From the NCBI GenBank assembly GCA_041661385.1, contig JBAZUP010000002.1:78670-142669 (forward strand): DNA of 64,000 bases. Reading direction: 5' to 3'. The notes beneath the pieces were generated by a model. It made no database searches. It was not told the origin of the DNA and saw nothing but the letters and a program-made list of their open reading frames with translations. Source of the DNA: Patescibacteria group bacterium. GTDB lineage: Bacteria > Patescibacteriota > Patescibacteriia > Magasanikbacterales > GWA2-37-8. Of the stretch, positions 36,282 to 45,079 are shown in pieces; within the stretch, counting starts at the first letter, position 1, and each line of letters begins with the position of its first letter. A program made the position numbers and the translations under genes.

Positions 36282-36752
36282 TTATTTAGCTTGCAATTTT
36301 ATTTTTGCAATCGCATCATTAAAGGCATTTGTGGTTAAAGAAGATCCGGAAATTACCGAAAGATTAAGGTTGTTAATATTTTGTCCGATTACCTGTGTTT
36401 TGTAATTGGAGGCAAACATATTTTGCCAGACCTGTGAAACTTTATTTGTGGCTTTGGGTTGAATAGAAGTATCGGTGATGATGTTATTTTTTAACGTAAC
36501 ACTCACGCCAACGTCTTCTGTAAGGGCCTTCTCATCAGGTATATTGTAAGTCGTTGTTATATTATAGGTGCCGTCTTTATAAGTTCCTGGTGAATTGACC
36601 TCGCTCAATTGGGTATTAGTTTGAGTAGGGGTGGTGTTTGCGCCGATGTCAGTGGTGGTTGAATTACAACCTGCGCCAGTTACAACTAGTGCCATTGCAA
36701 CTATTGTAAAAAGGACCGCTAAATTAGGTAAGTTATGATTTTGTTTTCTCAT
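36282..36752 (-). CDS. hypothetical lipoprotein
   Basis: Signal plus lipobox (LVVTGAGCNS). T/N-rich. Confidence 0.45.
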   Translation of the reverse strand: MRKQNHNLPNLAVLFTIVAMALVVTGAGCNSTTTDIGANTTPTQTNTQLSEVNSPGTYKDGTYNITTTYNIPDEKALTEDVGVSVTLKNNIITDTSIQPKATNKVSQVWQNMFASNYKTQVIGQNINNLNLSVISGSSLTTNAFNDAIAKIKLQAK

Positions 36753-37117
36753 ATGAATGAATAAATATTAGATAATTTAGTTATTTTTATAATAATACTG
36801 TTAAAAAGTATTAGTAAATTATTATAGCAAAAATTATTATCGCTGTCATTTTCGCTGATATCCTTACTATACGTATTTGGCACCCAAAAGGTTTCAAGGC
36901 AAAAAAGCCGTTATTCCTGTTTGAGCTATTCACAATCAATTTACCTTGACAACCCTAAGGATTGTGGATATAATTAGGCACATGAAATTGAACTGCGCAA
37001 ACAATTTGAATAATAACAATAATAATACCTAGCGCAGGTATAGTTTTTCATGAAGCTATACCCGCTACTAAGCGGGTTTTTAAATAGCACAAGACTTATA
37101 GTTGGTAAGCAGTATAT

Positions 37118-37192
37118 TCCGGGATAGTTGAGTGGTACAACGCCACGCTGTTAACGTGGATATCCTAGGTTCGAATCCTAGTCCCGGAGCCA
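37118..37192 (+). tRNA. tRNA-Asn (GTT), CCA encoded
   Basis: Acceptor tccggga/tcccgga, anticodon stem ccacg/cgtgg with loop ctGTTaa, T-arm ctagg-ttcgaat-cctag. Its 3' end overlaps the recombinase stop region. Confidence 0.85.
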
Positions 37193-38677
37193 AGTAGGAT
37201 AAAGGGTTTTTTCGGCGAAAATACGCCAGCCCCTTTTGGCCAAGAATTCAAATTTTTTGCCTTTCACCGTAAAGTTCGAGCCGACATTTTTTAGAAAGGT
37301 ACGAATTTCATTGAGATCGCCTGCACGGGCGATTTTTTTGGCTTCACAACTGGATAAAATAAATTCCCTCATCGGTTCGAGCCAATTAGCGCCCTTGTTA
37401 TTAATTTCTTTCAATTTGCCTTCAGCTACCATTTTTTGATTCAGCAGTTTTTCTTTCTTTGTCAAATAATCGGCTTTATCTATTGTGCTGTCAAGATGCG
37501 AATCGAGCAATTTATCCATTTTTCCCTTTATTGCCGTTATTTGGCCTTCTAAGGCAACTACAAGGGCGCTGGATGCTTGTTTATTTGATTCCGCATCATT
37601 ATCTAGTTTAGCAAGCATCTGCTCGCCCAGGTCATCAGGTAAAGAAACTTTTTGCAAAACCTCTTTCAGCTGTTCGGCCAGCGCTTCTTCACGAATATAT
37701 TTTTCCTCGCATGTTCCTATTTTCTTGGTACAGCGATAGTACACATGACCCTTTTGTCTTTCAGCCGTTATATAGCAACCACACGAACCACATTTCATCA
37801 AACTGCAAAAAATATATTCGTGTTTCTTAATTTTGTGGGGCCGACCACGGTTTTGCATTATTGTTTGCACTTCGTCAAAAAGTTTCTTGGTAATCATTGG
37901 CTCGTGTTTTCCCTCGTGCAATTCGCCGTTGTATTTAAACACGCCAGAGTAAAAAGGATTTTTGAGAATTGATTGAAGTACGCTTACTGATAGTTTACTA
38001 TTGCTTTGGGTGCGTAGTCCTAAATCATTAAATTTTTCCGCAAGGACTTTTAAAGGATATTCACCAGTCGCGTACAATTCAAAAATCCTTTTTACAAGTT
38101 TATGCTTTGTCTTATCAATAAACATGGTGTGGTTTTTGAGATCATTCAAATACCCAAACGGCGCGCGGCCAGGGCATTCACCTCGGCGCAATTTTTGGCG
38201 CAAACCCCGTTTTACATTCTCGGAAAGATTATCAATGAAATATTTACTCTGGCCGAAAGCAATATTAAGCATAAACTTGCCTTGGGGCGTGTTTTCGAAC
38301 CAAAAAGTCGGAAATTTGAGGGAATTTATTTTTCCGGTGTCCACCAGGTAAATTATTTGTCCGCCGTCGATTGGATTACGAGCCAAACGATCAGGATGCC
38401 AAGCCAAAATGCCGTCGGCCTTTCCGCTATTGATAATTCGTAACATTTCACCGAACACAGTTCGGCCAGGCTGTTTGGCAGTTTTTGCCTCGCAAAGCGA
38501 GGTGACGATTTCAAGTTTTTCCTTTACGGCAAATTCTTTTAACTCGGCCAGTTGTGCGTCAATCGATAATACTTGTCGCTCTTCCTCGTCGGTCGATTTA
38601 CGAGCGTACAAAATGTATTTGGCCATACGATTATCAATTATATTTAGAAAAGTTTGTTTTTGGCGTCGTGCGACCAC
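37178..38677 (-). CDS. large serine recombinase (resolvase catalytic domain + recombinase domain + zinc ribbon + coiled coil)
   Basis: YARKSTDEEERQ...SIDAQ resolvase-type catalytic N-terminus (likely true start MAKYILYARKST, about 38626). CGSCG...C zinc ribbon. C-terminal coiled coil. Confidence 0.85.
   Translation of the reverse strand: MVARRQKQTFLNIIDNRMAKYILYARKSTDEEERQVLSIDAQLAELKEFAVKEKLEIVTSLCEAKTAKQPGRTVFGEMLRIINSGKADGILAWHPDRLARNPIDGGQIIYLVDTGKINSLKFPTFWFENTPQGKFMLNIAFGQSKYFIDNLSENVKRGLRQKLRRGECPGRAPFGYLNDLKNHTMFIDKTKHKLVKRIFELYATGEYPLKVLAEKFNDLGLRTQSNSKLSVSVLQSILKNPFYSGVFKYNGELHEGKHEPMITKKLFDEVQTIMQNRGRPHKIKKHEYIFCSLMKCGSCGCYITAERQKGHVYYRCTKKIGTCEEKYIREEALAEQLKEVLQKVSLPDDLGEQMLAKLDNDAESNKQASSALVVALEGQITAIKGKMDKLLDSHLDSTIDKADYLTKKEKLLNQKMVAEGKLKEINNKGANWLEPMREFILSSCEAKKIARAGDLNEIRTFLKNVGSNFTVKGKKFEFLAKRGWRIFAEKTLYPTWLRD
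37187..37263. repeat. IR-A left copy (77 bp). It includes the tRNA-Asn 3' end and the recombinase 3' end.
   Basis: Reverse complement matches 38681-38757 (gagccaagtaggataaagggttttttcggcgaaaatacgccagccccttttggccaagaattcaaattttttgcctt). Confidence 0.8.
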
Positions 38678-38680
38678 GAC

Positions 38681-38757
38681 AAGGCAAAAAATTTGAATTC
38701 TTGGCCAAAAGGGGCTGGCGTATTTTCGCCGAAAAAACCCTTTATCCTACTTGGCTC
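38681..38757. repeat. IR-A right copy (inverted), just upstream of the recombinase start
   Basis: Reverse complement of 37187-37263. Explains the shared peptide KKFEFLAKRGWRIFAEKTLYPTWL in two track ORFs. Confidence 0.8.
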
Positions 38758-38853
38758 GGAATGTACGAAAGAATACGAACGGAATTTACGGAATAGGGCG
38801 AGCGGAAGGAGGGGTTTGGGGAGGAATTCCGCCCGCCCACTGGCGCGCTTTTT
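38754..38853. repeat. IR-B left copy (100 bp)
   Basis: Reverse complement matches 44089-44188 with one mismatch (gctcggaatgtacgaaagaatacgaacggaatttacggaatagggcgagcggaaggaggggtttggggaggaattccgcccgcccac...). Confidence 0.8.
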
Positions 38854-38992
38854 AAAAACTGCCAAACAGCCTGAAAAAATGTCGGCTCAAACTTTACGGT
38901 GGCCAAAAGCAAACTTTTCTTTTCTCTGCGCTTGCCCCACCCGCCCGTTGCGCGCGCAGCGGGGTAGGAACTCCCTTTATAAATACTGAATA

Positions 38993-41242
38993 CTACACGT
39001 CAAATATAATATTCTCCTGCGCTTTGGCGTAAATATCAAGTCTATTTTTTAAATCGATTCTATTGACCAACCAACCCTGTAATTCGCACTGGTGGATAAA
39101 ATCATTAATTCTATTAATACCATATATTTCTTTTAGGGTTACCACGAGGCCAAACTTAATACCATCTCCATCTCTCGTGCCAAGTCTTTCTTTTGTTTTA
39201 ACACTTATCCCCCACATGCTATTATCATATGCTTTCCTAGGTAATAATTTTTCGCCAAATGTTTCCTGTATGTGTTTAGTATTGTCCCACTTGCGAAAAA
39301 ATTTTCTTGCGTCACCCTCATACATATAATGTGACTCGCCGTCGTCAACGCTTTGAGTGTTTCTGTTTATTGTCTTAATACCTTTTGTGTGAACCCTTCC
39401 AAGATACACATCCAGTTCGGTATTGGTATAATCTACTCCTTGGTTTATCGAACATTTGGGAAAATAACAGAGTGTAGCTTTTGCTACAAAGGGATATTTT
39501 TTATCATCAATAGGAACAGGAAGTTTGTAGTTGTATGTGTCATACATCTCTGAAACACCATTGATAATAAACCTTATCTCGTCATCGGGTGATTTAATTA
39601 TATCTTCTATGCGTTTCGGTACTATTCCATGGCCAATTAGTGCTGCAAGTCTTTGGTCGCACGCTTTATTACTCCATCCGGAAGCAGAATCCACAATTAA
39701 GGCTTTGGCTGTCTCTCTACTAAGACCCAAGACCTCGATTAGATATGCAACTTTTCTAGTTATCCAAGGTGCCGCAAAAGAAGTTCCCGTGCGAAGACCT
39801 TCACCGTTTGGTTCGCAAACTCGAATAAAATCTTCAGTAATCATATCACCCCCATAGCTACAGACATCTGGCTTGTTAAAAAATGACAAAACCAGCCCTT
39901 TTCTAGAATAAGAGGCGGGTGTATTTGTGCTGTTTACAGAATTGACCACTATCGAGTTTATGGAATCTGCTGGAGCGCCTATTCTTCTTTCGGTCTTAGG
40001 GTCTCTATTGTTGGTTCCCGCGATAATAAAAATTATATCTTTTTCGTATTGAATTTTGTCGAGTATGGCAGCTTCTGGCGATATTGAATTCAGGTTAATT
40101 TCGTTATCTGATCCCAAAGACAAGTTCCACACTTTAATGTCAGGGTTTGCTTCAACAATTTCTTCTATTAATTTCATAATTGTGAAGGCGCTGTACTGAC
40201 CCTTGGCTGCAACGCCAAAGTGCCGTACCTTAAACCTACCACAACCATCGTCGAGATCGGGGTTAATAACCGGTCCGTCCACAATAATAGAACTTATTGC
40301 CGTTCCGTGTTCATAGTCCTTTTGATCAAGTGGAATTTCATCATCGATCATTTTTTTGAATTTAACCCACTCAGAAAAATAAACCCTCGTATCAAACATG
40401 GTATCAATAACACCTATAGTTGGTTCATTATTTGGAGAATCAATAATATGACTATTTTTCTGGACCGTCTCGCTCAAAACATCATCATAACTTAATTTGG
40501 ATATATCCTCCGTTGCCATCGCTATAAGGTAAGGGGCTTTTTCCGTTAGGATTGTGATTTGAGGTGGCCTTAAGAGCATGGTGGTGTCACTGATCACTCT
40601 TTCTTCGGGGACATCAATGCCAATTTTTTGTAAAATTGTAATTGCATCAGCACTAGTTTTATAAATAGTTATAATTGATTGATTCTTTGTATTGATTCTG
40701 TTATCTGGAATTCCGAACCCTTCTACATAGTGCGAATCCGCAATAATATTGCAAAACGTTGATCGAGTAAGTCCATACTTATTAAATTCTATACCAAAAC
40801 TTCCAAGCTTTTCGAGCCCGTCAGCATCAATACTTCCTTTGAACTCGATGTTAAGTAATATGATACTTTTACTTAATTTTTCGATTGTATCATCAATTAT
40901 ATCGCCATGAACAAAATGAGTAATGATGTGTTTTTTTTCTCGGTCGCTGTCTGAGAATCTTGCGCCAACAACTGTGCTATTTGCGTGCATTTGACCTTTA
41001 GAAAAAAAGCCACTGATTCTATTACTTTTCGCCACAACGGTCGTGTACCTAACATCAATAAGGGCCCCACCAAGAACCTTCTCTTTTTTCCAATATTCTC
41101 CAAGTTGTTCCAGCCCCACTGACAGCGTCGTCAAATATTTAGATGTTACAGGAGGTGCGTTTTTTGGAATATTGCGAAATCCCGGCCTGTTTTTACTTGG
41201 CCGCTGCTGAAAGGAACCTTTTAACTGAAGTAGGTCATTCAT
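38993..41242 (-). CDS. S8-family subtilisin-like serine protease with N- and C-terminal extra domains (IetS-like)
   Basis: Catalytic triad contexts: IGVIDTMFD (Asp), HGTAISSII (His), GTSFAAPWITR (Ser). 749 aa, no signal peptide. Follows the AAA ATPase with a 3-nt gap. Confidence 0.8.
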   Translation of the reverse strand: MNDLLQLKGSFQQRPSKNRPGFRNIPKNAPPVTSKYLTTLSVGLEQLGEYWKKEKVLGGALIDVRYTTVVAKSNRISGFFSKGQMHANSTVVGARFSDSDREKKHIITHFVHGDIIDDTIEKLSKSIILLNIEFKGSIDADGLEKLGSFGIEFNKYGLTRSTFCNIIADSHYVEGFGIPDNRINTKNQSIITIYKTSADAITILQKIGIDVPEERVISDTTMLLRPPQITILTEKAPYLIAMATEDISKLSYDDVLSETVQKNSHIIDSPNNEPTIGVIDTMFDTRVYFSEWVKFKKMIDDEIPLDQKDYEHGTAISSIIVDGPVINPDLDDGCGRFKVRHFGVAAKGQYSAFTIMKLIEEIVEANPDIKVWNLSLGSDNEINLNSISPEAAILDKIQYEKDIIFIIAGTNNRDPKTERRIGAPADSINSIVVNSVNSTNTPASYSRKGLVLSFFNKPDVCSYGGDMITEDFIRVCEPNGEGLRTGTSFAAPWITRKVAYLIEVLGLSRETAKALIVDSASGWSNKACDQRLAALIGHGIVPKRIEDIIKSPDDEIRFIINGVSEMYDTYNYKLPVPIDDKKYPFVAKATLCYFPKCSINQGVDYTNTELDVYLGRVHTKGIKTINRNTQSVDDGESHYMYEGDARKFFRKWDNTKHIQETFGEKLLPRKAYDNSMWGISVKTKERLGTRDGDGIKFGLVVTLKEIYGINRINDFIHQCELQGWLVNRIDLKNRLDIYAKAQENIIFDV

Positions 41243-41245
41243 AAA

Positions 41246-42283
41246 CTACCCCCTAAGATCTCGTGATATCTGACTTTTTGATATTCCTGTGAGCATCTCC
41301 ATATCCCTAACAGAGAAGCCCTCCCTTTGTAAGTATTTTAAATCCGTTTTCTTATTCTTTGAATCGATAGATTCGTACAATTTTTTTAGATAGTCGAACT
41401 CATTGTTTGGATCACTAAATGCGAGCGAGGTTTTTATAATATTTTTTAGCTCACCGGGGTATGGCATTTCATCCATTAATGAAATAATTTTTTTAAACAA
41501 TCGCATATTGCGACCTGCAAATTTAAACTTTACTAAAAAATCATTAAGTATTGATTCAGCAACTTCAATTAAGTCGTTTCGACTGTATCTATTGAAGTTA
41601 ATGGTGGAATCGAATCTTCTGACTAATGCTTTATCAAATTTAATATAAAGGTTAGTCGTGGCAATAAGGATGGTACTAGCACTTAGACTGTCTAAACCCT
41701 TTAGCACCGACGATGTTACACGTCCCATTTCCCGTAAGTCGTTGGAATTTATCCTATCAAGAGCAATTGCATCTATTTCGTCAAAAAGTACGATCATCTT
41801 TTCTGGGTGGGGAAGTTCTTTTAGCTCTTTAAAGATAGTAACAATATTTTTTGATGTTTGACCAAGTTTGCTATCAATAACATTTTCAAAATCAACTGCA
41901 AACAACTCCCGCTCAAGTATTCTAGCTACTTGCTTGGCGGTCTCAGTCTTTCCTGTCCCAGGCTCGCCCTCAAACAAAAACTTATTTATTCCCGCGTTAT
42001 GACCTATTGAATTAATAATCCCTAAAATATCATTCTTGATTGGGGTGGGAAGTGGAAGAGCGCCTCCTGACAGACTTATTTTGGTCAAAAAAGGAAAATT
42101 TTGTTCGTTGTCTTGTGGTACGAATGTATTCGTGCCGGATAATAGCGCCATTATATATTCAGCAAGCTGCTGGTCGCCGTTTGCGTCAAAATATCGAGCT
42201 ATACTATAAGCTTCATTTCTAAAAGCCCCATCGTTTTTTTCTGCGTGATATTTTATTAAATTTAATATATTTTTTTTTCGCAT
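41246..42283 (-). CDS. AAA+ ATPase (IetA-like)
   Basis: Walker A GEPGTGKT, Walker B IVLFDEID, second region of homology ALVRRFD. Confidence 0.8.
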   Translation of the reverse strand: MRKKNILNLIKYHAEKNDGAFRNEAYSIARYFDANGDQQLAEYIMALLSGTNTFVPQDNEQNFPFLTKISLSGGALPLPTPIKNDILGIINSIGHNAGINKFLFEGEPGTGKTETAKQVARILERELFAVDFENVIDSKLGQTSKNIVTIFKELKELPHPEKMIVLFDEIDAIALDRINSNDLREMGRVTSSVLKGLDSLSASTILIATTNLYIKFDKALVRRFDSTINFNRYSRNDLIEVAESILNDFLVKFKFAGRNMRLFKKIISLMDEMPYPGELKNIIKTSLAFSDPNNEFDYLKKLYESIDSKNKKTDLKYLQREGFSVRDMEMLTGISKSQISRDLRG

Positions 42284-42536
42284 ATTTTCCTTTTATTTTT
42301 ATTCTAACACACCAGGGACGCATTTACAAGAAAATGGGACACAAACATAAAATCGACTACATTTCGCGAATAAGATAGGGCTTTTGACTTATTGTTTATT
42401 TCGGCGTATAATTATGCGACCACATTTTGGAGAAAGCGGTTTGTTAAGCAAAATATTGTTAATAAACCGAGTTTCCTAAAAAGAAACTCCTTTGTGCAAT
42501 GATGCATGAAGCCGAAACGAAGAAAGGGAAACACCA

Positions 42537-43475
42537 ATGCACCGTTCACTGTTGTTTGTTGTTCTCTTCATCACGGCCGTCGCAGTCGGCTGTGGTCGGC
42601 AGGGTTCGCCGGATGTGGCACAGGACCTTGGTGGCGCAAGCGCCTTCAAGGCTGTGCAGAATCTCAACCCCGGCCTCACCATCTACAAGGCATCCGGAGG
42701 CGAGCTCCGCGGAAGCTATCGCGCCAACAACAGCGCGATCCACTTCCAAGCCTTGCGCGGAGAGAATCTTGTGCTCGGCGTCAACACGGTCGATCCGGAT
42801 GCTCCCGCCTACGCCGTTTCCGTCCGGATCATCGACCAGGAAGGAAACCCTGTTGCGATCGCCATCGGCGATAGCGATGAAAGGATTTCCGCCTGGCAGG
42901 AGAAAGTGGAGGGACTCGGCACGGGTTCCAACCCCGACCTCAGTGAAACCTTCGTGCTCGCGCAGGAGGCCACAGATGTCCTGTCCCAGACCGTGACGAG
43001 CGGATTCGACGAGGAGATCAAGACCTTGAAGCGACGCAGCTTCACAGCTGCACCCGTCGCAAACGCACCCGGCCAGTCGAGCAAGATGCAGGCGCTTTCC
43101 TCGACGTGGAGGTACTGGCTCCGGATGTTCCGGAAGGATGCCAACTTCAACGGCAACTTCGCCGATCACTCCGCCGTCATCGTGAATGTGACCAAGCCAG
43201 ACGGAACGATCCTGAACTACGTCACCTGCAACCACGGTACCTGCGCGGACGATCCGTCCATGCAGTTCCGGTGTCAGAACACGGTCTACCCGGCAAGCCA
43301 GCGTCCGTTCGCGATCTTGCCGTGCGATTCGGTTTCTTCCTATGGCTTCTTCTCGGGCCAACACGTCTGCAACGATGATACTCTGGTGCAAGTCAACATG
43401 GTCGTGTACGGCAATAGCAGTCTCACGACCTGCACCGACTCGTCGTTGCGCCTCTGGGCACCTTCTTGCAGCTAG
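42537..43475 (+). CDS. GC-rich islet: secreted lipoprotein (312 aa)
   Basis: Lipobox LFITAVAVGCG, SD gaaagggaaa upstream. GC-rich block 42480-43545. 15-bp perfect hairpin gatgtcggcgctcgc...gcgagcgccgacatc after the stop. The minus-strand 310-aa Arg-rich ORF is an antisense artefact. Confidence 0.55.
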   Translation: MHRSLLFVVLFITAVAVGCGRQGSPDVAQDLGGASAFKAVQNLNPGLTIYKASGGELRGSYRANNSAIHFQALRGENLVLGVNTVDPDAPAYAVSVRIIDQEGNPVAIAIGDSDERISAWQEKVEGLGTGSNPDLSETFVLAQEATDVLSQTVTSGFDEEIKTLKRRSFTAAPVANAPGQSSKMQALSSTWRYWLRMFRKDANFNGNFADHSAVIVNVTKPDGTILNYVTCNHGTCADDPSMQFRCQNTVYPASQRPFAILPCDSVSSYGFFSGQHVCNDDTLVQVNMVVYGNSSLTTCTDSSLRLWAPSCS

Positions 43476-43609
43476 CAAGTCGGCCTAACCAGTAGGCGAT
43501 CACAAAGGATGTCGGCGCTCGCTCCTCGCGAGCGCCGACATCGCAACTTTTACACATATTTGTTATAATACCCACATATTTATAATAATACTTATTTATA
43601 ATAATACTT

Positions 43610-44047
43610 ATGAAAAATATTATATTATCTCCAGTGCCCTTTAAAAAAATAATTACTATTTTTTTTGCTGGCTTAGTTGGTGCCTTGATATTTGGCTTAC
43701 TATTTGGTTTGGTCGGTTTATTGTTTGCCAACAATCTCGGGTTTAAGGTCGCTATTGGTTCAGAAGAATTAACTATGGGAGCAAGCGCGATATTTTACTG
43801 TCTTCTTAGTACGCCTTTTGGCGCAATGTTTGGTGTTTGGATTGCCTCTAAGATGGCAGGTTATAAATCTAATTATTTGTATTATTTTTTAACGACTTTA
43901 TTTTTAGTTGTTATTGGTCTATTTTTTAGAGACTATTTTAATTTGTTTGCATTTGTGGCATATGCCGCTGTCTGTTCAATTACCCTAACAGCTGTAATTA
44001 ATTATTTTGCTAAAATTAAATCGCAAAATGTATCTACTCAGAAGTAA
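43610..44047 (+). CDS. small polytopic membrane protein
   Basis: Four hydrophobic helices, AT-rich native composition. Lies inside the IR-B-bounded segment. Confidence 0.5.
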   Translation: MKNIILSPVPFKKIITIFFAGLVGALIFGLLFGLVGLLFANNLGFKVAIGSEELTMGASAIFYCLLSTPFGAMFGVWIASKMAGYKSNYLYYFLTTLFLVVIGLFFRDYFNLFAFVAYAAVCSITLTAVINYFAKIKSQNVSTQK

Positions 44048-44088
44048 TAATTTTGTAAGTCTAGTTAAAGGAAAAACTTGAAATCGTC

Positions 44089-44188
44089 AAAAAGCGCGCC
44101 GGTGGGCGGGCGGAATTCCTCCCCAAACCCCTCCTTCCGCTCGCCCTATTCCGTAAATTCCGTTCGTATTCTTTCGTACATTCCGAGC
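44089..44188. repeat. IR-B right copy (inverted)
   Basis: Reverse complement of 38754-38853. Confidence 0.8.
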
Positions 44189-44214
44189 AAATACAAAAAA
44201 GCACCCTAAAATGG

Positions 44215-44357
44215 GTGTTTTTTTGTATTTTGTTTTGCGTCTGGATTCGAACGGAAGATGGTAATAAACGAAGTTTCTTACTTGCCGAGGAAAGTCCACG
44301 AAAACCCGAAGGTTGTCGTGAGAGAGAACGAAGTGAGCGCATTCGAATAGCCAAGCG
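44215..44357 (+). repeat. tRNA-3'-adjacent structured element, copy C (next to the tRNA-Asn 3'-end repeat)
   Basis: Inverted T-loop copy ctggattcgaacgg (44241-44254). Core cttgccgaggaaagtccacgaaaacccgaaggttgtcgtgagagagaacgaagtgagcg (44281-44339) is about 95% identical to 60165-60232. Followed by cctagtcccggagc. Confidence 0.6.
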
Positions 44358-44371
44358 CCTAGTCCCGGAGC
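44358..44371 (+). repeat. direct repeat of the tRNA-Asn 3' end (putative attR core)
   Basis: cctagtcccggagc is identical to 37177-37190. A degenerate third copy tctagtcctggggc sits near 44685. A hairpin terminator follows at 44372-44404. Confidence 0.6.
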
Positions 44372-44759
44372 ATAATAAATAAGCACACCATAATGGTGTG
44401 CTTATTTATTATGATTCAAAGGTTGGATTCGTTTTATTTTATAATATTGCTATAATTAACGTATAATGAAAGTCAAATTATGAAAAAATACCATAGACGA
44501 ATACTATATTCTATTTTCGCAATAGTATTTGGTGTGTTTATGTTTATATATGGTGGGTACGATGACAGTCCGGGTGGGCAAGGATTGGGGCTATTACTAA
44601 TTATTATTGGTATTGTTGGATTAGTAAAAAACAAAAAAATATCTTCGTAAAGCTAGTAAAATGAGCACGTTTGAATAGTGAAGCGTCTAGTCCTGGGGCT
44701 AATAAAAATATTGACAAAGTGCTAATTTAGTGCTATTTATAAGACAAGGAGGCAAAATC

Positions 44760-44960
44760 ATGGATTTTTCCTGGGAAACCAAATCATCGCCGGTCATTTT
44801 GCTGGCGGTAGCAATTCTCGGACCTGTAATCTTGTTAGGGTTCGTGATCATCGGACCAATTCATCTGGTTCTTCGCATGTTCGGGAGGCGCGGTTTCTAC
44901 ACCTTGAAGAACGGAGTAACCCATACCTGGTCCCTCGAGGGCGCCCTCGAACCGCGATGA
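44760..44960 (+). CDS. GC-rich islet: small membrane protein (66 aa)
   Basis: SD aaggagg 8 nt upstream of ATG 44760. One TM segment (PVILLAVAILGPVILLGFVIIGPI). Palindromic hairpin gagctcg...cgagctc after the stop. Confidence 0.4.
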   Translation: MDFSWETKSSPVILLAVAILGPVILLGFVIIGPIHLVLRMFGRRGFYTLKNGVTHTWSLEGALEPR

Positions 44961-45079
44961 AGTTTCTCCATTTGAGCTCGTTTCGACCATCGTGTCGGAG
45001 CGAGCTCTTCTATTAATAATTACCTTTCTTAATTACAATGAGGTATAATTATTTAAACTAAATTTAAATTATAATTTAT

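Follow-up and report, generated by a model that had tools for sequence, protein, structure and literature searches.

Miniature integrative elements of Patescibacteria that target tRNA genes and have a serine integrase gene between inverted attachment-site arms

A stretch of 64,000 nucleotides (hereafter the window) from a Patescibacteria group bacterium (Magasanikbacterales; GenBank assembly GCA_041661385.1, contig JBAZUP010000002.1, positions 78,670 to 142,669 of the forward strand) was analysed around a large serine recombinase (LSR) gene that lies between two 77-nt inverted repeat arms beside a tRNA-Asn gene. The repeat is probably one end of an integrative element of about 7.0 kb (37187-44188), inserted at the 3' end of tRNA-Asn by its own LSR. 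The layout is shared by more than 100 relatives in Patescibacteria and is apparently undescribed. More broadly, the element represents a widespread family in Patescibacteria of miniature integrative elements that target tRNA genes and whose unusual architecture is conserved and in part unexplained. An earlier note on this DNA had taken the arrangement for a possible self-inverting switch, an interpretation that is only partly supported.

Results

Inverted repeat, tRNA target and element ends

The repeat search in the window returned a perfect inverted repeat of 77 nt (37187-37263 and 38681-38757; 100% complementary) with 1417 nt between the arms. In the window the 77-mer was present only twice, both times as an arm (0 expected, 100 shuffles). 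The tRNA-Asn(GTT) gene, which serves as integration target and B arm of attL, was placed at 37118..37192 on the plus strand by ARAGORN and by Rfam (tRNA, 70.5 bits), with its T-loop GTTCG 19 nt from the CCA end. The left arm overlaps the final 6 nt of this gene, GAGCCA. The earlier note was correct in these points: the left arm includes the tRNA terminus, and the repeats enclose the recombinase open reading frame (ORF) alone, 37178..38677 on the minus strand being the sole long ORF between them. Because of the repeat, the end of this ORF and ORF 38554..38796 have a peptide in common, as also noted earlier; it is 25 residues long (GKKFEFLAKRGWRIFAEKTLYPTWL).

Comparison of attL, spare attP and attR delimited the attachment sites. 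In attL, the tRNA 3' half is joined through the core GAGCCA (37187..37192, plus strand; common to the tRNA end and both arms) to the sequence of arm A, reading CCCG-GAGCCA-AGTAGG. Arm A' (37187..37263, listed on the plus strand) is the P' arm of this site, and its minus strand codes for LSR residues about 456-480. Arm A (38681..38757, minus strand) is the P' arm of a spare inverted attP upstream of the LSR gene. Directly outside arm A, from 38758 on the minus strand, lies a pseudo-tRNA P arm (PSI), AAATTCCGTTCGTATTCTTTCGTACATTCC followed immediately by GAGCCA. PSI carries a T-loop-like GTTCG 24 nt from the core end and is preceded by a GC-rich hairpin (gc). This first copy of PSI and gc was delimited at 38758..38853 (minus strand) by comparison with relatives and with a second copy at 44089..44183 (plus strand), which is 96/97 nt identical to its reverse complement and forms the P arm of attR.

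The core of attR, GAGCA, is at 44184-44188 and is followed by AATACAAAAAAGCACCCTAAAATGGGTGTTTTTTTG, an intrinsic-terminator-like hairpin of the type found after tRNA genes. Together, the core and the displaced terminator-like hairpin of tRNA-Asn (AAAAAAGCACCCTAAAATGGGTGTTTTTTTG) occupy 44184..44227 (plus strand) and mark the right end of the element; the displaced terminator is now 7 kb from its tRNA. The window thus has a boundary at a tRNA 3' end with an adjoining integrase gene and a second boundary with a host-like terminator beyond, as in tRNA-integrated islands. attR reads ATTCC-GAGCA-AATACA and the spare attP reads ATTCC-GAGCCA-AGTAGG. The att sites have only a short core in common, no long direct repeats surround the element, and from the aligned sites the crossover must fall within GAGC. 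GC skew is reversed over 37-42 kb. The tRNA 3' half is not repeated directly at the far end, as it would be in tyrosine-integrase islands (up to 3 mismatches allowed). A search for the pattern GTTCG...AGCCA did not pick up attR because its core is GAGCA.

With the ends rejoined, attP consists of gc-PSI, GAGCCA and a P' arm. The segment 38681-38853 (arm A plus 97 nt, about 174 nt) is a complete, intact, inverted duplicate of attP that lies 55 nt upstream of the LSR start. A circular form would therefore have two inverted attP copies, which divide it into a recombinase arc and a cargo arc. A search for circular forms in viral contigs gave only two partial matches.

Recombinase gene and C-terminal tail

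The LSR gene occupies 37178..38626 on the minus strand (ATG at 38626) and codes for 482 aa in the integrated state, with its stop codon (37178-37180) inside tRNA-Asn. Pfam matches were obtained to the Resolvase catalytic domain (PF00239, E = 1.8e-19, residues 5-150), Recombinase (PF07508, 1.7e-16) and Zn_ribbon_recom (PF13408, 5.7e-08). A YARKSTDEE motif is present near the N-terminus, the protein matches the resolvase-family structures 3g13 and 3guv, and the C-terminal domain of A118 integrase (4kis/6dnw) could be aligned to its C-terminal half with E = 4e-08. Residues about 330-420 are the candidate location of the coiled-coil motif that large serine recombinases carry as an insertion in the zinc ribbon. 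Judged by its catalytic, recombinase and zinc-ribbon domains and the A118 alignment, the protein between the arms is a large serine recombinase. With 482 aa and these domains it is not a small serine invertase (about 190 aa, C-terminal helix-turn-helix). An identical protein is on record from a Patescibacteria metagenome-assembled genome (MAG).

The reconstructed attP falls within the 3' end of the LSR reading frame, and therefore the excised form encodes 492 aa and the integrated form 482 aa. The integrated protein ends in WLRD, its last two codons (RD) being read from the antisense strand of the tRNA; the rejoined or flipped frame ends in WLGMYERIRTEFTE, a conserved tail (...YERIRTEF...). 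Reconstruction of the junction stays in frame in nearly all loci of the relatives described below and adds aromatic/aliphatic-x-x-(I/V)-R-T-x-F (for example WL-GMYERIRTEFTE, WC-SILELVRTHF... and WL-RILNEIRTFFKENP...). Entropy of these reconstructed tails at codon positions 1, 2 and 3 was 0.96, 0.62 and 1.32, which is a coding signature. In other loci the replacement tail acquired on integration includes ...DSN..., from the T-loop antisense of the tRNA. Among the 120 best homologues, about 6% have a native tail.

Relatives of the element

In the protein search, 7864 of 8000 scored candidates were significant, and at least 532 and at least 558 loci were confirmed in two DNA collections. 160 homologous loci were fetched (80 from species-representative genomes, 80 from metagenomes; proteins 52-81% identical), of which 122 had enough flanking DNA to be testable for the repeat. 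An inverted repeat of the same geometry, perfect or near-perfect and 41-159 nt long (median 94.5), was found in 110 of the 122. The upstream arm is about 55-290 nt from the ATG, and the other covers the final ORF codons. Arm sequences vary between loci; within a locus, the two arms mismatch at only 0.9% of positions, with no strand bias. Arm A' is fast-evolving (entropy 1.20 at codon positions 1-2, 1.45 at position 3). The layout is thus conserved and functional-looking, in agreement with the earlier view that it is not a passive scar.

A convergent tRNA gene adjoins the 3' arm in 100 loci, representing 14 amino acids and 26 anticodons, and in every case the first 5-8 nt of the arm equal the end of the target tRNA. 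Such matching cores are GGAGCCA (Asn), CAGCCA (Gln), CCGCCA (Ser) and GCACCA (Leu, Gly, Lys, Arg, Ile, Met, Tyr). The distance from GTTCG to the arm boundary is 23-24 nt in PSI versus 18-19 nt in real tRNAs. In 54 relatives gc-PSI recurs inverted at the far end of the element, in most cases with 98-100% identity; the match extends 3-6 nt into the core, and terminator-like sequence comes next. From these far ends, element sizes of 2.4-7.0 kb (median 2.9 kb) were obtained.

Several groups of loci depart from this pattern. In four (L002, L026, L048, L089) the sequence after the 3' arm has a tRNA-like T arm and acceptor end (...GGTTCGAATCC...GAGCCA), with GGTTAC(A/G)C...GGACTATATCAT farther upstream. 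ARAGORN calls no tRNA there, and the sequence may be an intron-containing or otherwise unusual tRNA. A sister subfamily (L018, L020, L023, L024, L026-L028, L042, L091, L093, L105 and others) has arms of 120-160 nt that start 190-310 nt upstream of the ATG, and has neither the D-C-B mosaic nor the piece E described in the next section. In L003, L005, L037 and L069, D, C and B are kept and the long arms are diverged or interrupted (by a run of N in L005); these are probably decaying or mis-scaffolded elements.

In six loci (L044, L078, L115, L117, L148, L164) no tRNA is present after the 3' arm; a P arm belonging to another subfamily (Y, AAAATAGGTTCGGATTTGGTAAAATAAAC) and a conserved GC-rich flank are found there instead. 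We interpret loci with Y after the 3' arm as tandem arrays, in which the P arm of a later element abuts the arm of an older one (L044, L078, L115, L117, L164) and the integrase of the outer element regains a native-type tail. The Y flank was considered as proof of inversion (L129 versus L115) and discarded, since Y is the P arm of another subfamily and the PSI/Y loci are tandem arrays. A role of Y as a host non-coding RNA was likewise discarded, as no Rfam match was obtained.

Complementary segments and folding of the recombinase unit

Outside the repeat, the element carries further segments complementary to the LSR unit. A mosaic at 38854..38920 (minus strand), upstream of gc copy 1, is made up of D (38902-38920), C (38874-38901) and B (38854-38873). 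The three abut one another, and each is reverse-complementary to a different part of the LSR unit. The counterparts, all on the minus strand, are D' in the leader, 20-38 nt upstream of the ATG (38646..38664; 19 nt, 95%), C' at LSR codons about 446-455, KNVGSNFTV (37265..37292; 28 nt, 96%), and B' at LSR nt 140-159 (38467..38486; 20 nt, 100%). A further piece, E (44066..44089, plus strand), is identical to LSR sense strand nt 101-124, forms an inverted repeat with E' (38503..38526, minus strand; 24 nt, exact in the window) and abuts gc copy 2. Between arm A and D' lies a GC hairpin, x (GTCGTG-GTCG-CACGAC; 38665..38680, minus strand), and relatives have a GC hairpin of different sequence at this position. 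A putative small GC hairpin, h (38487..38502, minus strand), was read between E' and B'. Rfam 15 covariance models, run on 36500-45000 with E <= 1, matched the tRNA only and nothing in the mosaic, gc, PSI or leader; in six related loci the Rfam matches were tRNAs alone.

Scored as an exact complement of at least 15 nt in the 110 testable relatives, D, C and B were present in 62, 75 and 54, with 50, 48 and 33 distinct sequences, respectively. The gaps between the pieces are mostly 0-3 nt. E was present in 47 of 54 relatives. Entropy at third codon positions (synonymous) was 1.06 in E', 1.16 in B' and 0.66 in C' versus 1.40 for the whole gene. The D-C-B and E segments co-vary with the gene across the family, and we infer that they are selected.

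According to the coordinates, D and C form one uninterrupted stretch, and its partners are the two sequences that border the duplicated attP on the side of the LSR arc. In the gene, E', hairpin and B' likewise follow one another without interruption, and their partners border the duplicated attP on the side of the cargo arc. On this reading of the coordinates, each pairing set would give a four-way-junction-like arrangement with 0-1 unpaired nt. The gene is also self-complementary internally. LSR ORFs contained 0-7 perfect internal inverted repeats of at least 13 nt (3-7 in most of 12 tested) versus about 0.05 expected, and 7 of the 8 such repeats in the whole window fall in the LSR unit. Folding z-scores were -13.4 (sense) and -12.1 (antisense) for the whole LSR unit, -5 to -9 (sense) and -5 to -11 (antisense) for ORF interiors alone, and -0.9 for a control cargo gene. 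In a covariation scan of 105 non-redundant ORFs one universal helix was found (nt 737-752 with 972-987), which is conserved in sequence; the other internal repeats are lineage-specific (2-43% of sequences).

As the preferred reading, the segments would insulate integrase expression from read-through on either strand, since integration moves the tRNA terminator 7 kb away. A more specific proposal, compatible with this reading and tentative in our judgement, is that the long repeat, D-C-B and E serve mainly to make any transcript that enters the unit, be it from the cargo or from the tRNA, fold back on LSR sequence, with only a short dedicated transcript left translatable; with the same reserve, the long perfect duplexes could be substrates of RNase III and occlude the start region. 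In the LSR transcript the pieces would face the 5' leader at D', codons 34-53 at E' and B', and the final 35 codons at C' and A', and antisense read-through is plausible given the displaced terminator. Such an RNA-level insulator is also consistent with the co-variation over 33-50 distinct variants, with the lowered synonymous variation and with the difference in folding between the LSR unit and the cargo gene. It is opposed by the mutually pseudoknotted nature of the pairings (the minimum-energy fold uses A:A' only), by the sister subfamily, in which D-C-B and E are missing and the arms are longer, and by the perfect abutment at the junctions, for which simple antisense occlusion has no need.

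Orientation of the recombinase gene

Inversion between the arms was carried out in silico. The earlier note had expected the tRNA-Asn 3' end to be rebuilt or destroyed depending on orientation; this did not hold, as the tRNA stays complete in both orientations because both arms carry GAGCCA. Its second expectation, an altered recombinase C-terminus, was borne out: the 482-aa protein ending in WLRD is extended to the 492-aa form with the native tail, and the ATG comes to lie 125 nt downstream of the tRNA.

Among the relatives, about 100 loci have the orientation of the window and 3 are flipped. One of the flipped loci (L119) is fully resolved, with the order tRNA-Leu, A, LSR, A', P arm, flank, and cargo beyond. 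In the other two (L033, L125) the tRNA is on the side of the upstream arm; both are partial and cut by contig ends. The ratio of about 100:3 implies that flipping is rare or strongly biased.

The notion of a phase-variable, self-inverting integrase stands in so far as the LSR gene lies between inverted copies of its site and flipped relatives exist; it does not account for the skewed ratio, and the repeat turned out to be part of a 7-kb element. That the LSR recombines the two inverted sites at an appreciable rate, so toggling its own gene on and off, is in our view unlikely. As in an inversion switch, two full inverted sites bound a segment with the cognate recombinase and nothing else, and a flip would change tail and upstream context with the tRNA left intact. 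Many relatives are found on contigs of 1.5-1.8 kb or at contig ends, but such breaks are expected without inversion wherever repeats exceed the k-mer of the assembler. The integrated sites are attL and attP, and to our knowledge attL x attP is not a permitted reaction for canonical large serine recombinases. The repeat is also far longer than the approximately 50 bp that the enzyme needs, which points to homology-driven maintenance, not site-specific action. Homologous recombination together with gene conversion is the simplest explanation of both the identity of the arms and the occasional flips.

Cargo and neighbouring sequence

The cargo arc begins with two minus-strand genes, an IetS-like S8 protease (38993-41242; Pfam, PADLOC IetS 4.6e-63) and an IetA-like AAA ATPase (41246-42283; Pfam, PADLOC IetA 2.4e-42); by these matches, 38993-42283 is a predicted IetA/IetS anti-phage defence pair. 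Two plus-strand ORFs without family match follow, one with a lipoprotein-like N-terminus (42537-43475) and one at 43610-44047. Between 42499 and 43478 long overlapping ORFs are present on both strands and G+C is higher (0.46-0.47); only 42537-43475 on the plus strand is gene-like. Small relatives have a single variable cargo gene, and some carry an XRE regulator or restriction-modification genes. A conserved XRE-type helix-turn-helix ORF of 68-76 aa, divergent from the integrase gene and beside the mosaic, was observed in L004, L007, L008, L010, L012, L013 and 7 more loci. It is a candidate regulator; the element in the window is without it.

Just upstream of tRNA-Asn, a perfect sigma-70 consensus promoter (TTGACA, 17-nt spacer, TATAAT) is present at 36946-36974 and a terminator-like hairpin at 37060-37077; the two would delimit a transcript of about 100 nt (window 36946-37085). 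Past attR, two further copies of a motif of about 37 nt that ends like the tRNA-Asn 3' end are found, one at 44338-44371 and the other at 44664-44699. An exact match to the 13-mer CTAGTCCCGGAGC is present at 44359-44371, and after each motif copy comes a hairpin or a small ORF (44481-44651, 44761-44958). The motif copies in 44189-44700 resemble a series of relics or miniature cassettes left by earlier integrations at this tRNA.

Discussion

Proposed behaviour of the element

Serine integrases place the outer motif of P-type half-sites about 5 bp farther from the centre than that of B-type half-sites. The GTTCG motif lies 5 nt farther out in PSI than in the tRNA, which would match this offset, and the LSR may recognise the T-loop-like GTTCG, the acceptor end and CCA. 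Such recognition would explain how tRNAs with 26 or more different anticodons can serve as targets. Homologous recombination and gene conversion would hold the long arms identical, so that either attP copy could be used or the recombinase arc could flip. A flip would restore the native tail and place the LSR gene behind the tRNA. The window would then represent the overwhelmingly preferred orientation, which is probably the off or stable one, and D-C-B and E would most likely pair in read-through transcripts from either side and so insulate recombinase expression.

Several points weigh against this account. GTTCG was assigned as a putative contact of the recombinase by its spacing alone. If the two attP copies are identical, a bias of about 100:3 is unexpected, and selection, a one-way latch or the like would have to be assumed in addition. 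Native-tail proteins also arise from tandem arrays (L044, L078, L115, L117, L164) and are therefore no proof of circles or flips. No empty site from a close relative was retrieved in the collection scans, which were aimed at the recombinase. The search of the cargo arcs for a conserved directionality-factor gene returned only the XRE-type helix-turn-helix protein (13 loci) and unrelated single genes. Arm mismatches showed no G:U excess of the kind that selection on RNA structure would leave (32 sense-type, 38 antisense-type); this absence would follow if pairing were needed on both strands, which counts in favour of an RNA-level insulator.

Other explanations

We consider it rather doubtful that the element is nucleic-acid-guided, with base-pairing taking part in control or mechanics and the tail swap and spare attP replacing a directionality factor. 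Each arc would then carry, inverted and joined together, the two flanks of the point at which it is inserted (D-C corresponding to C'...D', and E'-hairpin-B' to B...E), a single-stranded form (RNA or single-stranded DNA) could seal the duplicated attP on either side by structures resembling four-way junctions, and the recombinase gene would have been selected for extreme self-complementarity on both strands. Such guidance could be likened to intron guide sequences, to the guide pairing of IS200/IS605 and to the bridge RNAs of IS110.

It is improbable that the upstream attP copy and the mosaic are a neutral relic of an old inverted duplication or self-insertion of the LSR unit. By coordinates, the reverse-complemented cargo arc is indeed collinear with a circularly permuted, heavily deleted recombinase arc (B'-C'-D'-cargo-E'), and decayed copies exist, among them L003, in which arm identity is lost. 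Against this origin as a mere remnant, the pieces remain exactly complementary while they diverge between lineages, synonymous sites are constrained in E', B' and C', and the layout is kept across proteins of only 52-81% identity.

It is very improbable that the unit is a 1571-bp insertion sequence whose terminal inverted repeats are the 77-bp arms, containing a serine transposase alone and landed by chance beside the tRNA. The repeats do bound a single recombinase gene and some MAGs have several copies (CAZZBC01 three loci, JASEHZ01 two), but the repeats are not terminal: PSI-gc, D-C-B and E are conserved outside them, the actual second end lies at a distance of 5.4 kb and is followed by the tRNA terminator, and insertion is always at a tRNA 3' end with matching core. 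This reading was rejected. Metagenome assemblies sometimes yield inverted chimeras, but an assembly or amplification artefact such as a fold-back chimera can practically be dismissed, since the same geometry is found in 110 of 122 independently assembled loci from different assemblers and projects, including CP174360.1 ("chromosome, complete genome"), and the arm sequences are lineage-specific.

Implications

Serine integrases are major tools of genome engineering, and their target choice and directionality are normally set by protein-DNA contacts and a separate directionality factor. In the present family a universal tRNA feature and a core of 5-8 nt carried by the element are apparently read, which suggests integrases that are easily retargetable. 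Integration edits the enzyme and a spare inverted copy can undo the edit; the arrangement is a candidate for a self-contained directionality or expression switch. The elements, 2.4-7 kb in size and with one gene, IetAS or restriction-modification genes, are tiny gene-delivery cassettes in Patescibacteria, whose routes of gene exchange are poorly known. A paper on horizontal gene transfer in Patescibacteria (PMC12455944) does not mention recombinases or tRNAs. Full-text literature searches gave no description of a serine-integrase family at tRNA 3' ends that combines an inverted duplicated attP, a tail swap and co-varying splints, and the splint-like segments with the extreme self-complementarity have no described counterpart for serine integrases.

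Comparison with known systems

Phage-type large serine integrases (A118/LI, Bxb1, phiC31, TP901-1) have the same domain order of resolvase, recombinase and zinc ribbon, att sites with a short common core, and an attP that adjoins the integrase gene. The same motif on element and host half-sites, offset by about 5 bp, would be a further likeness if the motif is assigned correctly. Unlike them, the present enzymes target tRNA 3' ends, with closely related enzymes using many tRNAs; attP lies within the integrase frame, a second intact inverted attP is present upstream, and the elements are of 2.4-7 kb with one or few cargo genes and no evident directionality factor.

Integration-dependent switches with attP within a coding sequence are known from the mycobacteriophages BPs and Brujita. 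In the "suicidal" archaeal tyrosine integrases of the SSV1/pTN3 type, attP also lies in the coding sequence and integration at a tRNA changes the protein (PMC5495485). Those systems use tyrosine recombinases or a repressor gene, whereas the enzyme of the present element is a serine integrase from which no more than the terminal 10 or more residues are lost, and a spare inverted copy of the lost part is kept beside the gene.

The position of the recombinase gene between two inverted copies of its own site resembles Salmonella Hin/hix and Flp/FRT of the yeast 2-micron plasmid. In the latter, two repeats divide the circle into two invertible arcs, and the circular form of the element would be alike. 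The element differs in that its enzyme is a large serine integrase, one of its chromosomal sites is the hybrid attL, about 97% of relatives have one orientation, and no role of an enhancer or of amplification is evident.

In IS10/IS50 fold-back inhibition and lambda sib retroregulation, outside sequences complementary to the leader or 3' end silence transcripts, and their inclusion depends on the integration state. The element likewise has outside sequences complementary to the leader or 3' end of its gene. It differs from those systems in having five complementary segments (D, E, B, C, and A plus PSI plus gc) that abut with gaps of 0-3 nt, and in a coding region that is itself unusually self-complementary on both strands.

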